A stretch of 64,000 nucleotides of DNA from a virus (Duplodnaviria; Caudoviricetes). Location: the IMG/VR virus record IMGVR_UViG_2582581026_000003, positions 3,607-67,606 of that record, one strand, 5' to 3'. Made by a program: the position numbers and the translations under genes. Under the pieces are notes generated by a model that had not been told where the DNA came from, ran no database searches, and saw only the letters and a program-made list of their open reading frames with translations. Positions 3,440 through 51,809 of the stretch are shown in pieces; positions within the stretch are counted from its first letter, which is position 1; each line of letters opens with the position of its first letter.

Positions 3440-3655
3440 ATGAAGATTTTAAATGGCTTTATTGTCACGCTTTTGCTTGTCGCTGGCTACACACAGGTAC
3501 ATGCCGAAGACGGTCATGATCGCTCTATGAAGAGGCATGCACAATTTAGAACTGAACAAAAAATTATTCACGGATATGAAGTTGAAAAGAAGGAGTTGAA
3601 GTCTGAGGCTGTCAGCCATGATAAAGCCAATTGCAAAAGATCTAGCGCAAGCTAG
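3440..3655 (+). CDS. Small secreted protein
   Basis: Signal peptide ending VHA followed by EDGHDRS; resembles small Pseudomonas periplasmic proteins. Confidence 0.6.
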   Translation: MKILNGFIVTLLLVAGYTQVHAEDGHDRSMKRHAQFRTEQKIIHGYEVEKKELKSEAVSHDKANCKRSSAS

Positions 3656-5666: not shown

Positions 5667-6803
5667 CTAACAGGAAGACTTGAGAATAGGTAACGATACG
5701 CGGAAAATCGTACCCTGTTCCAGCGTCGACTCCACCTCTATCTTTCCACCGTGTCCCGCCACTATCTCAGCGGCTATAAATAATCCCAAGCCCAAGCCAA
5801 CAGTCTCTCCTCGATTATCGTTCGAGTATCTGGAATAACGGCCTTCAGGGCTGAAGAGAATTGGTATTGCGGCGGGAGGAATCGGTTCGCCAAAATTTAG
5901 CACATTGAAAAAAGCTGAGGTTGCATTCCCTTTCAAAGTGACGTGGATGGGCTGGTGCAAATCGCCATGTCGCACCGCATTGCCGATCAGATTAGAGAAA
6001 ACCTGGGCCATCCGTGCTGGATCAAACCGCCCAACGATTTTTCCAGTGTCGTTGAATACAATCTGCGCTTGAGGATGACCAGCGCGGATTTCGTTTACGG
6101 TGTCTTGGCATATGGAGTGCAACTCAGTGACTTCTCCCTTGATCGTGAGTCCTGTCCCGAGGTTACAGCGCGCCAAGTCGAGTAAATCGCTGACCATCTG
6201 ATTGGCACCGCGAACACTGGTAGCAATCTGGGCTGCAATCATTTTTTCGCGGTCGGGCAGTTGTTTCGATTTGCGCAACAGGTCGGCGCCCATCAGCACG
6301 GCACTCAACGGCGTGCGTAAATCATGGCCCAACACGCCCAAGACCATTTTTCTGGTCGTTTCTACAGCGTCCCCATAGGCTGCGATCGACTCGACCAGCG
6401 CTTGATCAATCGCTTCATTGAAGCGAACCATATCCGCAACATGGTAGCCGTCCCCCGTATATTCTTGCTCCAACCATAATCTGAGTACGCTCGACCTGAG
6501 GGCTCGATACTCGGAGACCATCTGATCTAGAGTGAAACCGGCCATCAAGCGATTGACTGTGTGGCTTTGAGCCGGTGTCTCGTCTTCGCTGACAGGGCCT
6601 TGGCCAAGGGACTTGTCAATCTGTTGCTGCTCGGTTTGACAGGTTCGCATGTCGAGCGCGACAGTTCTCAAGATCAGTTGCGCATGGTTTCTCAGACCTT
6701 TGGCGTCGAGATCTGGCATCGGGGTTTCCACAGACCTCGCGAAGTCTTCCCACGCTTGCAGAATATGCTTCATGTTGACGAAGATGAAATCTGACAGTCG
6801 CAT
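5667..6803 (-). CDS. Cytoplasmic sensor histidine kinase (RsbRD_N-like N-terminus, HisKA, HATPase)
   Basis: H-box GHDLRTPL, N-box NLIGNAVRHG, G-box GLGLGLFI; no TM segments evident. Confidence 0.92.
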   Translation of the reverse strand: MRLSDFIFVNMKHILQAWEDFARSVETPMPDLDAKGLRNHAQLILRTVALDMRTCQTEQQQIDKSLGQGPVSEDETPAQSHTVNRLMAGFTLDQMVSEYRALRSSVLRLWLEQEYTGDGYHVADMVRFNEAIDQALVESIAAYGDAVETTRKMVLGVLGHDLRTPLSAVLMGADLLRKSKQLPDREKMIAAQIATSVRGANQMVSDLLDLARCNLGTGLTIKGEVTELHSICQDTVNEIRAGHPQAQIVFNDTGKIVGRFDPARMAQVFSNLIGNAVRHGDLHQPIHVTLKGNATSAFFNVLNFGEPIPPAAIPILFSPEGRYSRYSNDNRGETVGLGLGLFIAAEIVAGHGGKIEVESTLEQGTIFRVSLPILKSSC

Positions 6804-7080: not shown

Positions 7081-7290
7081 TCAGTGCAGTGAGCGCGCAG
7101 GCCCGCCGAGTGACCGCAGTTGGTACTCGGTGACAGCCTGGTACAGCGACTCAGCCTCCAGACGCAGGCGTTCGACTTCCTTCGCGGGCTGGCCGGCGTC
7201 CTGGGCTTCGTGATAGCGGCGCTGCGCATCGATCGCCTGCTGAATCAGCGGCTCGCCAGCCTCGATAACTCCCGCCAGGGTCTTCTTCAC
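7081..7290 (-). CDS. 69-aa conserved helical protein, copy 3
   Basis: Paralog of copies 1 and 2; GTG start at 7290. Confidence 0.75.
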   Translation of the reverse strand: MKKTLAGVIEAGEPLIQQAIDAQRRYHEAQDAGQPAKEVERLRLEAESLYQAVTEYQLRSLGGPARSLH

Positions 7291-7380
7291 GCGCTGCCGC
7301 TCCAGTAATTTGATCAAGTAGCATAGGCCAATGGCGATTCAGGCTTTGCTGCTGGGCGGCCAGATCAGCGACGATTACCA

Positions 7381-7408
7381 ATGTCTGCTTCCGGCCAGAA
7401 GCGGACAT
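7381..7408. repeat. Palindromic junction motif ATGTCTGCTTC-CGGCCA-GAAGCGGACAT
   Basis: Near-perfect inverted repeat; related degenerate copies at 1578-1606, 4213-4273 and 9062-9085. Confidence 0.7.
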
Positions 7409-13146: not shown

Positions 13147-16100
13147 GCGGCCAAGTTCCCCCATTGATATCGTTTGACGCCGTTCTCATCGAACACCTTG
13201 CCGCCGTTGTTGTTGATGGTCTGGCGGGCTCCTCCGCCGAGCGGGCTGTTGAGCTCAAAGTTTCCGGCCTTGTCGATGCGCCATCCTTGAACACCGGGGA
13301 TGTAGTTGTCGGACTGGATGAAAGAGCCGATCTTGGCATTAACAATCGATCCATCTTTCACCAAGAGGGAGTTGATAAACACCTGCCCGCCCTCCACAGC
13401 GAACGGCACAGTAATCGCGCCGCCAGCGATGGTGTTGACGACGGCAAACCGATCAGCGCTGACCAGAAACTGGCTTTGCAGTCCGGCTGGCCCGTTCTCA
13501 ATCCCCAGGCCCACGCCTGCAGCGACGTATTGCCCCTGGGCGTTAACCTCCATTTTCACAGCCCACATCGTGCTGGCCTTGCCGTCCAGCGTGGCAAGTG
13601 CCTGGCTGGTCTGTTGCACCGCAGCCGTGTTGCTATTGACGGTCACCTGAACCGTGTCGATTCGCTTGGCCGTGGCTACGCCGTCCTCGATCCTGGCTGA
13701 CTGCTCGGACCAGACACCGATGTAAACCTCGTCTGACCCAGCAAAGCCAGCTGTGTCCCCGGCCAAGGCCGGATTGACCTGAACATAAACACCATCAAGC
13801 TTGGTGGCCTGAGCGTTCACCTTGTCATCGACACCAGTCAGCTTGGTATCAAGCTGGCTGATTGCCCCCGCCTGCGCTGCGACCTTTCCTTCAGCGGTCT
13901 GCAGGCGTGTGTCGATCCCGGATATGGCATGCCCCTGCGCGGTGATCGTGCTTCCTTGCTGGCTAACCGTTCCGCTCAGGGTGTTCAACGCCGAAACGCT
14001 GGCCTTGTTGTCCAGCTCCGACTTAACCCCCTGAATCTGCTGAGCGTTCGCGGTTATTTTCCCGTCCTGCTCCGTTACCTTGGTTTCGACAATCTGAACC
14101 CGGGCAGCAGTGCCATTCTCCGTCCTGGCGACCTGGCCGATATCGAGCCAGTACAACGGGTTAGGAGGCGCATTGCCGCCGCCGGCCGCCGCCGGTACAT
14201 CTTGGGTCGCCACGTACAGGCGCTGCCCCTGCCGCACGTTCTCCCCTTGCGTGTAGGGCTTGGAAGGGTCGTACTCGAGAGCATCAACAATGTCGTCGAT
14301 CTCGCCCTGCAGCTCCCCAAGGCGCTCATTCACGGAGCCAGGACCGTTGCCGTCGATGAGATCGATTCGCTCATTGAGGTGCTGCCCCAGTTCTGTCTCA
14401 CTGATCTTGCCGGCGATCAGCTCAAGGATGGGGCCAGCGTCCGAACTGGACTGACCCATTACGCCATTCACCACCGGATACCACGGGCCGATGTTGCCTG
14501 TCCGATCGACCAGTCGCGCCCAGAAGAAGAACGACACACCGGCAGCCAGGCCCTGCAACTTATAGTCGCTCTGCGGGTAGGCCAGGTCGGTCAGTTTGGT
14601 AGCGTCCTCCAGGCTATTGGCTGGGCCGTACCAGATCTCCGTGCGCTGGGTGTCCTCGGCGCCCGGAGGAAAGTCCCACTTCAGGCCTATGGCGAACAGT
14701 TCGCTGGTGGCGTTGAGGAACGTCACCGCCGGCGGCAAACCAGCCTTACCGGTCAGCTGCGTGAGGCTGGAGCTCTTCCAGATCGACGAGATATCGAAGG
14801 CACTCACCGCCCGCACACGGGCCAGGTAGGCGCCGGCATAGATGCCGGTCACGTCGACCGAGGTCGAGCCCGTGCGCTGCAGCTTGATCCAGTTGCCGTT
14901 GTCCTTGCGCCACTCCACGTCATAGGCCACGGCGCCGTTCACGGCCGGCCAGGCGATGGTCATGGTGCTGACCGCGATACCCTGGTCCACGGCGTAGTTC
15001 GAGGTCAGGGTCACGCTCGCCGGCGGCGGAACGACCGTGATCGGAATAACGCTGATTGGCCGCTCCTCCAGGCGGGCGCCGGTGTCGATGTGGGCGAACT
15101 TGCTCGGGTTGAACTCGAGCGCAGTGATCTCGTAGTCGCCCTCAGTGGCGCGCGCTGTCCTGAGTACGCGGAACAGCTGGATGGCCAGGTCGTCAGCGTC
15201 GATTGCCCACTGTAGCTCCGGCTCCGGCGCAACGCTGTAGGCCGTGGTTACAGTGACAGCACGATCACTGACCGATTCGACTGTGCGGCCCTGGGCGCGG
15301 CCGTTGGGCAGGTTAATGATCAGACGGTCGCCAGCCTTGATCTGCGTATCGCGGTCGAGCGTGACGACTCTGCCCGCTGCAGCGGCGATCCGGCCGCCGT
15401 TCGGGCGCCCTGCGATCAATTCGTCAGCCACAGGAATCACGTAACCTGGCAGTGGGATCCGCCCCTCCATCCCAGTCCTGAAGGTCACGGTACGGTCTTG
15501 GCTGTTGCTCAGAAGGATCCACTTACCGCGGCGCTGAGCTTCCGATGCCCGAGTGCAGCCGATTGCAGAGATCTCGATCGGCCGGTCACGGTACCGGCGC
15601 TGCAAGGCCAGGTCGGTGACCGGGATTACGTCGGTGTCATAGTTGTTGGACGGGTTGTCGTAGCTGACCAGCGCCCGACTGTAGTGGGTGTTCTTCTCGG
15701 CGCCACCGTAGGTGAACTCGCCATCGATCACGTTGAAACGGGTGAACACGTAGTCGATGTCCTGCGCGCGCGGCATGTCGGCCTGCATGAACAGTGAACC
15801 CTGGGCCCAGTAGACCATCCCCCGGTAGATTGCCGACAGATCGCGCAGTAGCGTCCAGGCTTCCGCCCGCCCCTGCAGGTTCATGTCGCACAGGAAACGT
15901 GGTTCCTGTCCACCAATGCCGTCGGGCACCAACTGGTCACAGTACTGGGCGATGCGGTACATCTCCCACTTGTCGACCATCCACGGCTTGATACGCTTGC
16001 CCAGGCCGAAGCGATCTTCCACGCACAGACCATAGGTGACGAACGCCGGGTTGTTGGTCCAAGCCTGCTTGAAGCTGCCGTCCCAAACCCCGGTGTAGGT

Positions 16101-37560: not shown

Positions 37561-37797
37561 ATGCAACCAAGATTCGTTATCGTTCCAGCTGTTCCAATAG
37601 CAACGGAGTCGTTTCATTCGGGTGGGCGTTACTACGCCACTACTCTGTCGGGCGGCTTTGATATTTACGATAACCAGGAAAAAATGCGACTCAAACTAAG
37701 TTACACGAGCAAAGGCCTGGCGGGTGCAGCATGTGCGAAGATGAACTTGGAGTCGGGCTGCCCCACTGAGCTAATCCCCCGATTGAGGAATGAGTGA
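37561..37797 (+). CDS. Hypothetical protein (antisense moron)
   Basis: GGAGG RBS; MQPRFVIVPAVP..GFDIYDNQEK.RL. Confidence 0.65.
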   Translation: MQPRFVIVPAVPIATESFHSGGRYYATTLSGGFDIYDNQEKMRLKLSYTSKGLAGAACAKMNLESGCPTELIPRLRNE

Positions 37798-38353: not shown

Positions 38354-38542
38354 ATGAAGGTAAACGTTAAGTGTAAGAGTTGCGGCAGTGACAAGTTCCA
38401 GATTCCGCCCAGGCCAAACAACAACTCGAAGGTTACATGCGGCAAGTGCGGCGCCGTCGAGACCTACGGAAACATCATGAAGGCTGTTGGTGACAAGGTC
38501 ACCGAAGACCTGAAGCGGGAATTCGGGAAGCTGTTCAAGTGA
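38354..38542 (+). CDS. Small zinc-binding protein
   Basis: CKSCG..CGKCG, basic C-terminus FGKLFK. Confidence 0.7.
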   Translation: MKVNVKCKSCGSDKFQIPPRPNNNSKVTCGKCGAVETYGNIMKAVGDKVTEDLKREFGKLFK

Positions 38543-38744
38543 CCACATGGCATCATTCAGTGGGCGTAGCAGGGCTTAACCGCCCTCTACGCTCACGTCG
38601 AGATCGAGCTTTTCCATAAGATCTCCTGAAACGGAAAAGTCCAGGCCTATACCTGGGCCTCGGGGTGATTTGCGTGTCTTCCCACGCCGCCCGCCAAAGA
38701 CCATCACGACGCTGGCACCCTACTGTACCAGTCTCGCCGATCCA

Positions 38745-38825
38745 GCCTCGCACCACCCATGAAGCGTACGGAGCATGGGCGCGCGGGCTGCCGGTGTTAT
38801 TCCGTAGCACTGTACTACCGGCTTA
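38745..38825 (-). ncRNA. Putative two-stem cis RNA element in the late leader (copy B)
   Basis: UAAGCCGGUA..CACCGGC-A-GCC..CCGUAC..GGC; second copy at 51739-51809. Confidence 0.5.
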
Positions 38826-38922
38826 TCAGTGTCCAGGCCTCCCGAAGGCTACCCTGGCTGCAGGTAAGATAGAGGGCACAAAAAAGCCCGCACTGAGCAG
38901 GCCTTCAGAATATTTAGAAGAA

Positions 38923-39222
38923 TCAGGCGCCCGATTCAGGGTCGCTCGCGGGTACGCCGCGTGGTTCTTTAGCGTCATCGCCCTGATCGTTCATCTGCGG
39001 ATCGACGCCTGGGGTACCACCACTCCCTGATTCCGGATGCTCGCTTGATACCGAGTTGTTGGCTTCCACGTCAGAAAGCTCTTCCTCGACAGGTGCTTCA
39101 TCATCCGGAGGTAGAGGGACCTCAGATTCTTCACGTCGAGGGTCATGACCGGTTTCGTTATCCGTCGCACGGGTCACGACCTGCTGCGATCTGTTACCAG
39201 GTGCATTCTCGTCAATTTCCAT
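38923..39222 (-). CDS. Acidic low-complexity protein
   Basis: D/E/P-rich 99 aa; GGAG RBS; flanked by terminators. Confidence 0.65.
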   Translation of the reverse strand: MEIDENAPGNRSQQVVTRATDNETGHDPRREESEVPLPPDDEAPVEEELSDVEANNSVSSEHPESGSGGTPGVDPQMNDQGDDAKEPRGVPASDPESGA

Positions 39223-39352: not shown

Positions 39353-39571
39353 TCAACGCCTGTCATCCGATAATGGCGTTTGTTCATCCGCCTCAGGCGT
39401 TACTCTTTCAGCAGGGTCGTCCCAATCTACTGGACGCTCCTTATCAGGGGTTTTCAACGGATCGTATTTGTTTGGATCATTAGGATCCAGCCTCGGTTCA
39501 TCTGTGCCTGGCTCAGGCTTGGATGGAGTCGAGCCCTGCGCTTGGTCTTCAAAACTCGAATCGGTAGACAT
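39353..39571 (-). CDS. Acidic low-complexity small protein
   Basis: GAGG RBS; D/P-rich. Confidence 0.6.
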   Translation of the reverse strand: MSTDSSFEDQAQGSTPSKPEPGTDEPRLDPNDPNKYDPLKTPDKERPVDWDDPAERVTPEADEQTPLSDDRR

Positions 39572-39768
39572 ACGCACCTCACCAATGAGGTCCAGCTTAT
39601 CTGGGCCGTAATCATTTGAAGCTCTCGGATTCGCTGAGTGCATTCGAGTAGATGAGCGGCAATAAAAAACCCGACGCGATGGCCGGGCTCTTTTGCGATC
39701 TTCGCCAAAGGCGAAATTATCACGATGGGGAAACTATGCCACCACACGTGCGGGAACGCAATAGGCCC

Positions 39769-40359
39769 TCAAGCGGCCTCCTTCATTTCGTACAAAACAG
39801 CCCCAATTGGTGACAGAGCCTTCTTGTCGATGTCCTCGCAGACCTCGAAGCAGATCTCCACAAAAGGCTCCCAGTCCCTGGCCCATGCACACGATGGCAG
39901 GCTCACGCCGTAGACATCATCGATCCACTTTTTGAACCACTCAGGGCTTGCGAAGGGATCTTCACAGGAAGACTGCCCGCCCTGGTGCATGCGGCGGTAC
40001 CGGAACATGACACCTTTGGCCACGTATTCGCACCGCTCACGTTTCGCCGCCGTCATCCGACCAGATCTTGCCAGCGCGTTATTAAACACAACCTCTTCAG
40101 CGGTCTCGCGATCGTCGTCACTGCAGGCCGGTGCGTACATGAAGTTGCCGAAGGCGCGAACCTGGCTGTGCAGCTTGCCGATCGCCGACTGTACCCGCCC
40201 TGCCAGCGCCTGGTGCACTGCATTACTCGCACTGCGCTGCTTTTCAGTGGTCTGCACCATGGCGCCCAGTAGGCCCAGTTGCTCTATGAAGGCGCCTTGG
40301 CTATCCCAGGCCGTGTACAGGCAGTCATGCCATGCTTGGCGTGCACTGTTCAGTTGCAT
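39769..40359 (-). CDS. Late antiterminator Q-like protein
   Basis: Last gene of the pR operon before the late leader; MQLNSARQAWHD motif typical of this position. Confidence 0.65.
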   Translation of the reverse strand: MQLNSARQAWHDCLYTAWDSQGAFIEQLGLLGAMVQTTEKQRSASNAVHQALAGRVQSAIGKLHSQVRAFGNFMYAPACSDDDRETAEEVVFNNALARSGRMTAAKRERCEYVAKGVMFRYRRMHQGGQSSCEDPFASPEWFKKWIDDVYGVSLPSCAWARDWEPFVEICFEVCEDIDKKALSPIGAVLYEMKEAA

Positions 40360-51681: not shown

Positions 51682-51738
51682 ATCACGCACCCGAGCACGG
51701 CGGGCCCTACGGGGATAACCGTATCCCTGAGTGGATCG

Positions 51739-51809
51739 TAAGCCGGTAAGAGCGCGCAACCATCACCGGCAGCCAGGGCGTCAACCGTACCTCCATGGCG
51801 TGACCTGGC
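51739..51809 (+). ncRNA. Putative two-stem cis RNA element in the early transcript (copy A)
   Basis: Same architecture as 38745-38825. Confidence 0.5.

Follow-up and report, generated by a model that had tools for sequence, protein, structure and literature searches.

What is the RNA motif that occurs once in the late leader and once in the early arm of a single prophage, and what might it do in these two places? The question arises from a window of 64,000 nucleotides (nt), positions 3,607 to 67,606 of the IMG/VR provirus record IMGVR_UViG_2582581026_000003 (Caudoviricetes). In this window the initial annotation had described a motif of two stems, present at 38745-38825 (copy 1) and again at 51739-51809 (copy 2), and had proposed an undescribed antiterminator resembling the put RNA of phage HK022, with a processing site or a protein-binding RNA as further options. 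The RNA is real, conserved and structured, and the two copies are a new family member and a divergent paralog. Both very probably belong to Proteo-phage-1 (Rfam accession RF03044), an orphan RNA motif of proteobacterial phages.

Copy 1 is read on the minus strand from 38825 to 38745 as UAA, GCCGGUA, a variable part, CACCGGC, a single A and a hairpin that opens with GCC and closes with GGC, with inner arms GCCCAUG and CAUGGGU. The same frame is found in copy 2 on the plus strand (51739-51809), where the inner arms are GCGUCA and UGGCGU. The frame, the single A and the inner arms of the second stem could thus be read out in both copies letter by letter, and both lie in the sense orientation, as had been described. 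Their co-occurrence is above chance: the pattern TAAGCCGG-N(8-38)-CACCGGCAGCC has 2 matches in the window versus none in 100 dinucleotide shuffles. Six open reading frames (ORFs) overlap one or the other copy, and none of these matched a PHROG family at E≤0.001 (one faint match, E 0.0079).

An Rfam scan, which had been recommended as a check, was run on the whole window and returned a single above-threshold match, RF03044, at 38863-38786 on the minus strand. Copy 1 aligns to all 82 model positions (1-82) at 76.7 bits (E 3.4e-12), against a curated gathering score of 42 bits, and so cannot be called undescribed. The features of the family are two hairpins, the loop of the second containing AUAAGCCGG, and the tail AACACCGGCAGCC. 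All are present in copy 1, as an upstream bipartite hairpin that lies outside the coordinates first given for the motif, a hairpin with the loop AUAAGCCGGUAGUA, and the tail itself. Copy 2 scores 23.2 bits, under the gathering score (E 0.04 in a search of 351 nt, E 0.0018 in the 67.6-kb record), in an alignment that matches both ends of the model and skips its middle. It possesses the first hairpin, the loop word and the tail, while the second hairpin is weak; copy 2 is a divergent paralog of Proteo-phage-1. The initial annotation had named an exact match to an already characterised Rfam family as grounds for refuting its proposal, and this applies in part. The family is indeed catalogued, under the Rfam type 'Gene; sRNA', but is without functional characterisation: a literature search on Proteo-phage-1 and RF03044 found no paper that names the motif or the accession, and no published function. 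The family presumably originates from the paper whose passages on the GOLLD and ROOL RNAs are taken up below. The passages of its main text that concern phage, prophage or Proteo- names do not mention the motif (PMC5737381).

The conserved RNA around copy 1 runs on the minus strand from about 38863 (start near 38863-38868) to about 38672. The region originally pointed out is therefore the right one, but the RNA is longer at both ends, extending about 43 nt beyond the 5' end first proposed. Folding energies of the single sequences are unremarkable (z-scores of -0.79 and -0.20 for the two copies), and support for a structure must therefore come from covariation among relatives. For this purpose 43 non-redundant sequences of the late type, that is, the type of copy 1, were aligned (alignment A2; L009, L024, L048, L060, L067, L108 and L115 were dropped beforehand as rearranged or spurious), and pairs were counted for a structure that we specified. 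Across the whole structure 94.4% of cells are paired, compared to 28-48% when the partners are slid by 1-3 columns, and none of 500 shuffles attains the observed pairing values. The helices of copy 1, with the number of pairs that show compensatory changes and the proportion paired in these relatives, are as follows.

38863-38860 with 38852-38849, minus strand: P0, a hairpin stem whose loop holds the 5' strand of P1a (3 of 4 pairs compensatory, 98.3% paired)
38857-38853 with 38837-38833, minus strand: P1a, the first RF03044 helix (1 of 5 pairs compensatory, 97.2% paired)
38848-38847 with 38842-38841, minus strand: P1b, a small hairpin inside P1a (weak, 75.6% paired)
38831-38827 with 38812-38808, minus strand: P2, a hairpin with the loop AUAAGCCGGUAGUA, the second RF03044 helix (2 of 5 pairs compensatory, 99.1% paired)
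38822-38817 with 38795-38790, minus strand: PK2, stem 1 of the initial annotation, crossing P2 (5 pairs invariant, the sixth kept in 30 of 43)
38745..38788, minus strand: P3, stem 2 of the initial annotation (10 of 12 pairs compensatory, 92.8% paired)
38707..38739, minus strand: P4, a long hairpin with an outer helix of 5 bp, an AGA bulge and an inner helix of 7 bp (RNAalifold, 43 relatives)
38672..38687, minus strand: P5, a hairpin whose stem varies around the conserved, GGAAAGAC-like loop GGGAAGAC

P0 crosses P1a and P2 crosses PK2, so that the core consists of two H-type pseudoknots followed by P3, about 125 nt in all; with P4 and P5 the late-type RNA comes to about 190 nt. In terms of the RF03044 model, P0 joins the 5' nucleotides to nucleotides of the internal loop, and PK2 joins the tail to the loop of the second hairpin. 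Compensatory changes in P0, P2, P3 and P4 bear out the earlier suggestion of selection on RNA structure. P3, the second stem, is a covarying helix, but its outer GCC/GGC is not fixed: the middle pair is kept in only 9 of the 43 late-type relatives. P3 lies 3' of the end of the RF03044 model (38786), which stops at CAGCC. Further downstream RNAalifold places 12 pairs in P4, and 8 of its 15 predicted pairs overall show compensatory changes. The P5 stem takes the forms GAGG/CCUC, GUGG/CCAC, GCUC/GAGC and GCGU/ACGC around its conserved loop; the regular expression used for P5 missed 9 of the 43 sequences, which have the loop variant GGGAAGA, and since the window is among them its P5 pairing was read separately. 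As for the first stem, the pairing frame is present, but its 5' strand falls inside the loop of the covarying P2. The stem is therefore not a simple hairpin, and is best understood as the second helix of a pseudoknot. Being invariant, PK2 is beyond the reach of covariation, and five of its pairs were moreover fixed by the search pattern; a scan for variants of its central base gave 19 loci, among which no family member was recognised by eye. The loop word CCGUAC, thought to be a conserved unpaired segment because both copies have it, does not hold up as such: 7 late-type relatives out of 43 have it, and a single one of the 11 early-type relatives.

The same data bear on whether the element acts as RNA at all. 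An operator, a recombination linker or an attachment site, functioning in the DNA without any role for a transcript, would fit the inverted repeat that GCCGGT and ACCGGC form in DNA, and recombination junctions do lie inside the element in L009, L024, L108 and L115. The compensatory changes in P0, P2, P3 and P4, however, preserve RNA pairs, including G-U pairs on one strand, and the spacing of the half-sites varies from 36 to 42 nt. Because of the covariation, an element acting only in DNA is extremely improbable.

Copy 2 represents a second, early-type lineage, for which 11 relatives were compared. In these sequences 96.1% of cells are paired, versus 29-42% in the slid controls, and their scores with RF03044 are 22.8-31.3 bits. 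P0, P1a and P1b are laid out as in copy 1 with other sequences, and are nearly invariant and 97-100% paired across the 11 relatives. The elements of copy 2 are listed here.

51690-51693 with 51701-51704, plus strand: P0
51697-51700 with 51719-51722, plus strand: P1a
51705-51707 with 51712-51714, plus strand: P1b
51724-51726 with 51731-51734, plus strand: an extra small hairpin
51736-51738 with 51753-51755, plus strand: P2, weak (2 of 3 pairs in the window, 97% paired across the relatives)
51742-51747 with 51765-51770, plus strand: PK2, stem 1 of the initial annotation
51772..51809, plus strand: P3, stem 2 of the initial annotation (99.2% paired, 3 of 12 pairs compensatory)

In the window copy 2 is preceded by a gene of unknown function (PHROG 1273) and followed by an exonuclease gene and then a Gam-like gene. 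In early-type relatives a small hydrophobic ORF comes first, and no more than about 10 nt separate its stop codon from the start of the RNA. At L031, L035, L047, L062 and other early-type loci this is a conserved small frame ending in ...LFACTFFMLASALAGCITS, with its stop within about 10 nt of the RNA; the window lacks this small ORF, another gene preceding copy 2.

The signature of the RNA was found in at least 118 viral contigs and falls into three lineages, which have a common layout with different helix sequences. Among the matches listed from the pattern scan of viral contigs, 79 are of the late-leader type (L060, a match by chance, and L067, an early-type copy that has been rearranged, are counted among them), 12 are of the early type, and 29 belong to a third lineage. 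The latter is a second full-scoring type, as all 9 members scanned reach 56-72 bits with RF03044, and it sits in an early-left operon, with a CI-like repressor gene on one side and the genes for RecT, exonuclease and SSB on the other. In L006, L019, L027, L032 and L056, all of the third lineage, a long stem AUCGGAGAG...CUCCCCGAUGCAGUG lies 3' of the core, and its flanks covary between loci. This stem holds variable inserts of about 60-150 nt, some with T-arm-like GGTTCGAATCC words, in which ARAGORN found no tRNA and Rfam no further family.

A pattern scan of species genomes gave mostly chance matches. Of the 80 loci listed, 11 were confirmed as late type by R1, our own covariance model (10 Pseudomonas species and 1 Enterobacterales bacterium); no match for the enterobacterial copy was found in E. 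coli genomes. Low scores were obtained with R1 at two further Pseudomonas loci, L162 and L188, and these have sequences that match the early type. Coliphage N4 had no RF03044 match at E≤1. Two cultured Pseudomonas phages are full members, phiAH14a at 82.1 bits and Solano at 63.8 bits with RF03044; in each of them the RNA is preceded by the last early gene and followed by the lysis or terminase genes. In phiAH14a (KU708004, 26084-26614) an annotated hypothetical coding sequence, AH14a_p55, spans the RNA on the opposite strand and is probably a miscall.

The claim that the RNA is common to the late leader and the early-left arm was correct for this prophage, in which both copies are in place. 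As a rule for other phages the two-site arrangement fails. A single family match (E≤0.01) was found in all 17 of the other records searched, namely 5 early-type, 5 third-lineage and 5 late-type records, phiAH14a and Solano; the occurrence of a late together with an early copy is a peculiarity of this prophage. Since a single copy may occupy either the late or the early-left position, the function of the RNA is not tied to one operon. Elsewhere, L197 (Pseudomonas sp. JDS08PS003) has two copies in the same orientation (5992-6102 and 7244-7388, R1 scores of 53.2 and 130.7 bits), 1.2 kb apart. A third, partial match in the window (14536-14584, plus strand), to the 3' half of our own model, reads ACACCGGCAGCC followed by a hairpin (E 0.15); it falls in coding sequence of the tail region and was judged to be chance.

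Around copy 1 the order on the minus strand is ninB, ninG, a PHROG-3373 gene, a promoter-like site with a palindrome, a hairpin, two small ORFs, the RNA, a weak terminator-like site and the holin gene. Promoters and terminators given here and below are predicted rather than mapped.

39772..40359, minus strand: Q-like gene, matching PHROG 3373, between ninG and the late leader
39723-39716, minus strand: promoter-like GTGATAAT, directly after the Q-like gene
39715-39701, minus strand: palindrome TTCGCCTTTGGCGAA, after the promoter-like site
about 39694-39662, minus strand: strong terminator-like hairpin (-18 kcal/mol, z-score -2.96)
about 39353-39570, minus strand: small acidic ORF followed by a terminator-like hairpin of its own (-19.3 kcal/mol)
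38923-39222, minus strand: second small acidic ORF, ending at a terminator-like hairpin and U6
38876..38906, minus strand: that terminator-like hairpin with U6, directly upstream of copy 1 (-14.9 kcal/mol, z-score -2.57)
38631..38656, minus strand: weak terminator-like hairpin with a U-rich tail, after copy 1 (-11.9 kcal/mol, z-score -0.94)

The PHROG-3373 protein is probably a Q-type antiterminator, judging from its modelled structure and from a nearby protein cluster. It has no sequence match in Pfam or PDB. Its AlphaFold2 model (mean predicted local distance difference test score, pLDDT, 77.9) has as top Foldseek matches the Q protein of lambda (7ubn_Q, E 0.074, TM 0.47; 7ubm_Q, 7ubk_B) and AlpA complexes, none at E≤0.001, and the Phage_antiter_Q domain (PF06323) is found on 11% of the members of a nearby ESM Atlas cluster. 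Two distantly related families, found at 25 and 20 loci respectively, between them account for this gene position at 45 of 53 late-type loci. The Q-like protein was also considered as a specific partner of the RNA and rejected: the family accompanies the late type by synteny, with profile matches at 55 of the 79 listed loci (many of the loci lack the upstream flank), but was found beside neither of the other two lineages. A GTGATAAT-like -10 element, a palindrome TTYGCCTTYGGCRAA and a strong terminator form a conserved unit after the Q-like gene, which possibly represents the late promoter together with a site for Q loading; a simple promoter scan did not report the GTGATAAT site. In relatives without the inserted small ORFs, the promoter-like site, the palindrome and the terminator stand directly before the RNA, which would therefore be made only after at least one terminator is read through. 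The two small acidic ORFs match no family, look like moron-style cassettes and have positional homologs in 2-3 other loci. Two plus-strand genes of unknown function, PHROG 23920 (38354-38542) and PHROG 23874 (about 37561-37797), flank the holin gene and run opposite to the late operon.

This arrangement resembles the late leader of lambda, which comprises PR', the 6S RNA and tR' under the control of Q. Alike are the map position, after the nin genes and a Q-like gene and before the holin gene, and the succession of a promoter-like site and terminators that need read-through. The lambda leader is not known as a conserved, covarying fold. Unlike it, the present loci have a conserved RNA after the first terminator or terminators, and this RNA also occurs in early-left operons and in tRNA arrays.

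With this map the comparison to put may be made. According to the passages on put in PMC9378689, this RNA of about 70 nt folds into two stem-loops arranged as a V, and its stem I contains a triplex. Its target is the zinc-binding domain of the β' subunit. Of its two sites, putL follows immediately on PL, and putR lies some 270 nt downstream of the start of PR. Like put, the RNA described here is a phage RNA found twice in one prophage, in two different operons (one late, one early-left), with adjacent helices and with terminators downstream. A processive antiterminator of this kind would bind, as a nascent fold, the RNA polymerase that makes it and carry that polymerase through the terminators ahead. 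Such a role would suit operons with terminators, and terminator-like sites do follow copy 1 on its strand (38656, 38287, 31605, 25537). It would also suit the third lineage, which lies ahead of the RecT, exonuclease and SSB genes in the early-left operon, and the wide spread of the family: for the many phages that have it no shared phage protein was identified, which would be predicted if the target of the RNA were an enzyme of the host. The differences, however, are considerable. With five or six helices, two crossing pairings and a length of about 125 nt, the core is unlike put in fold, size and sequence; put has one site in each early operon, whereas here one copy is late and one early-left, and other phages hold a single copy. 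Terminators precede both copies, three strong ones between the promoter-like site and copy 1 and two upstream of copy 2 (47572 and 48644), and at these the RNA would be of no help, while copy 2 is followed on its strand by a single weak terminator-like site (54656). A Q-like antiterminator gene is already in place, and some copies lie inside tRNA arrays. In the whole HK022 genome RF03044 had one match of 36 nt (39767-39802, 16.8 bits), far from the early region, and R1 none at E≤10, in model searches that included no direct alignment to the put sites. The put analogy drawn in the initial annotation is thus weak, since anatomy, homology, position, copy number and the existing Q-like gene all speak for a difference, and a put-like mechanism is unlikely; it retains some weight because terminator-like sites also follow copy 1.

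The 5' edge of the RNA is constant and sharp, falling 5-10 nt after a terminator tail, the stop codon of a 98-residue ORF, or a tRNA gene (in the case of tRNA-Asn, 5-7 nt away). A terminator-like site lies at most 50 nt upstream in 37 of 61 unique contexts, and no conserved promoter was found at the 5' edge in the sequences upstream of the RNA in relatives. On the 3' side, 40 of 64 unique late-type loci have a terminator-like site, at a fixed distance from CAGCC (median about 145 nt), and at several loci a tRNA or tRNA-like gene begins about 7 nt after P5. Same-strand tRNA genes are nearby at 9 of the 79 listed late-type loci.

One way to understand such boundaries is a cis-acting mRNA element, a folded module at the 5' border of an expression unit, with control over the processing, stability or translation of the RNA in which it lies. 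This might take the form of a 5' protective fold, left after an endonuclease cut in the A/U-rich stretch upstream, or of a ribozyme that cleaves itself at its 5' edge; ribozymes typically combine invariant junction nucleotides with variable helices. The sharp 5' boundary and the lack of a promoter of its own agree with this role, as do the 3' parts, which differ by lineage (structured RNA or tRNAs in some, mRNA in others). In the early type, moreover, the succession of RNA, conserved linker, ribosome-binding site and ATG is kept in front of three or more different genes. A protective hairpin would nevertheless not require a tandem pseudoknot with invariant loops, and most late-type copies meet a terminator before any gene. 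No ribozyme family was matched at E≤10 in the Rfam scans of both copies. A cis-acting role is a real possibility, though a doubtful one.

The fixed distance to the late-type terminator could also be expected of a ligand-sensing leader, a riboswitch or attenuator in which the pseudoknot core would be the aptamer, and the terminator (late type) or the ribosome-binding site that follows the RNA (early type) the expression platform. The highly conserved unpaired nucleotides around variable helices would be in keeping with an aptamer. No alternative pairing between the core and either the terminator or the ribosome-binding site was seen, however, and about 65 nt of conserved structure (P4 and P5) separate core from terminator. 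At some loci tRNAs take the place of the terminator, and the downstream genes have no common metabolic theme. A ligand-sensing leader is accordingly judged very unlikely.

The explanation we favour, though only tentatively and at less than even confidence, is a stable, co-transcribed, folded RNA module that acts through its invariant core. Constant boundaries, the lack of its own promoter, a terminator or tRNA on the 3' side and the variety of operons are best fitted by a self-contained module of this kind. Such an RNA would be transcribed within a phage operon from a promoter not its own and would persist as a discrete folded module, freed when nucleases process the flanking tRNAs or mRNA, or ending at its own terminator. 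Its action would run via the invariant pseudoknot core, UAAGCCGG paired with CCGGC and the flanking A-rich strands, on a conserved host component. The late copy in the window would be made only by polymerases that have passed three terminators, presumably thanks to the Q-like protein. As these terminators must be read through before copy 1 is reached, it would be an RNA of the late phase and not the cause of late read-through.

Several observations weigh against a stable module. PK2 is invariant, so that covariation does not speak for its pairing. Adjacency to tRNA genes is a minority feature (the 9 of 79 loci above), and the early-type arrangement, in which a conserved linker joins the RNA to the ribosome-binding site and start codon of whatever gene comes next, looks cis-regulatory. 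The transcript data consist of contigs from four RNA-seq runs of one study, without ends, strand or level, and show no discrete RNA species. These contigs cover both copies (records 1, 9, 17 and 25 reach to 38862, records 2, 10 and 18 start from 38834, and records 7, 14, 23 and 30 cover copy 2), in libraries that may contain DNA. All four runs have contigs that break at 38834-38862, with an overlap of 29 nt, inside P0/P1 of copy 1. This break is read as a branch in the assembly graph, perhaps due to a second copy of the motif in that host, rather than as a start site. In two runs contigs end at 39669 and 39695, near the promoter-like site, which is at most a weak hint.

Orphan structured RNAs are known from other phages. 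GOLLD and ROOL, as portrayed in the relevant passages of PMC5737381, are often found in prophages beside tRNA genes, with which they are possibly co-transcribed. The RNA described here is likewise an orphan structured phage RNA that at times lies next to tRNA genes. Unlike it, GOLLD and ROOL are far larger, and they are unrelated in sequence and fold; neither was matched in the Rfam scans. Short resemblances to M1 RNA were also observed. The invariant GAUAAGCCGG of copy 1 (38817-38826, minus strand) is antisense to nt 353-362 of E. coli M1 RNA (L142, rnpB), a length matched in 76 of 1000 shuffles, and copy 2 (51744-51755, plus strand) shares the 12-mer CGGTAAGAGCGC with M1 187-198, a length matched in 5 of 1000. 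No RNase P model was matched in the Rfam scans of both copies, and the resemblance may be due to chance.

Proteo-phage-1 is a widespread and strongly conserved phage RNA of unknown function, the anatomy of which is now more fully described. Family membership, fold and genomic setting are what this analysis shows, whereas the mechanisms discussed above are proposals. Newly added are the two pseudoknots, a covarying third helix beyond the RF03044 model, a late form of about 190 nt, and a divergent early lineage below the RF03044 cut-off. Its regulatory setting is now defined as well: the RNA follows a Q-like gene and terminators, or is embedded in tRNA arrays. The tempting analogy to put has been removed as poorly supported. 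As the cultured phages phiAH14a and Solano carry the RNA, its function can be tested at the bench. A bolder proposal, which is speculative and rather unlikely, is that the extended Proteo-phage-1 is a new class of functional RNA with a new fold, the invariant pseudoknot core of which would be either a put-like processivity element, though unrelated to put, acting on the host RNA polymerase that transcribes it, or catalytic, cleaving itself or processing tRNA with a cut at its own 5' edge. If true, a polymerase-acting or catalytic role would explain the presence of this RNA at the boundaries of operon modules and in the tRNA arrays of many Pseudomonas phages.

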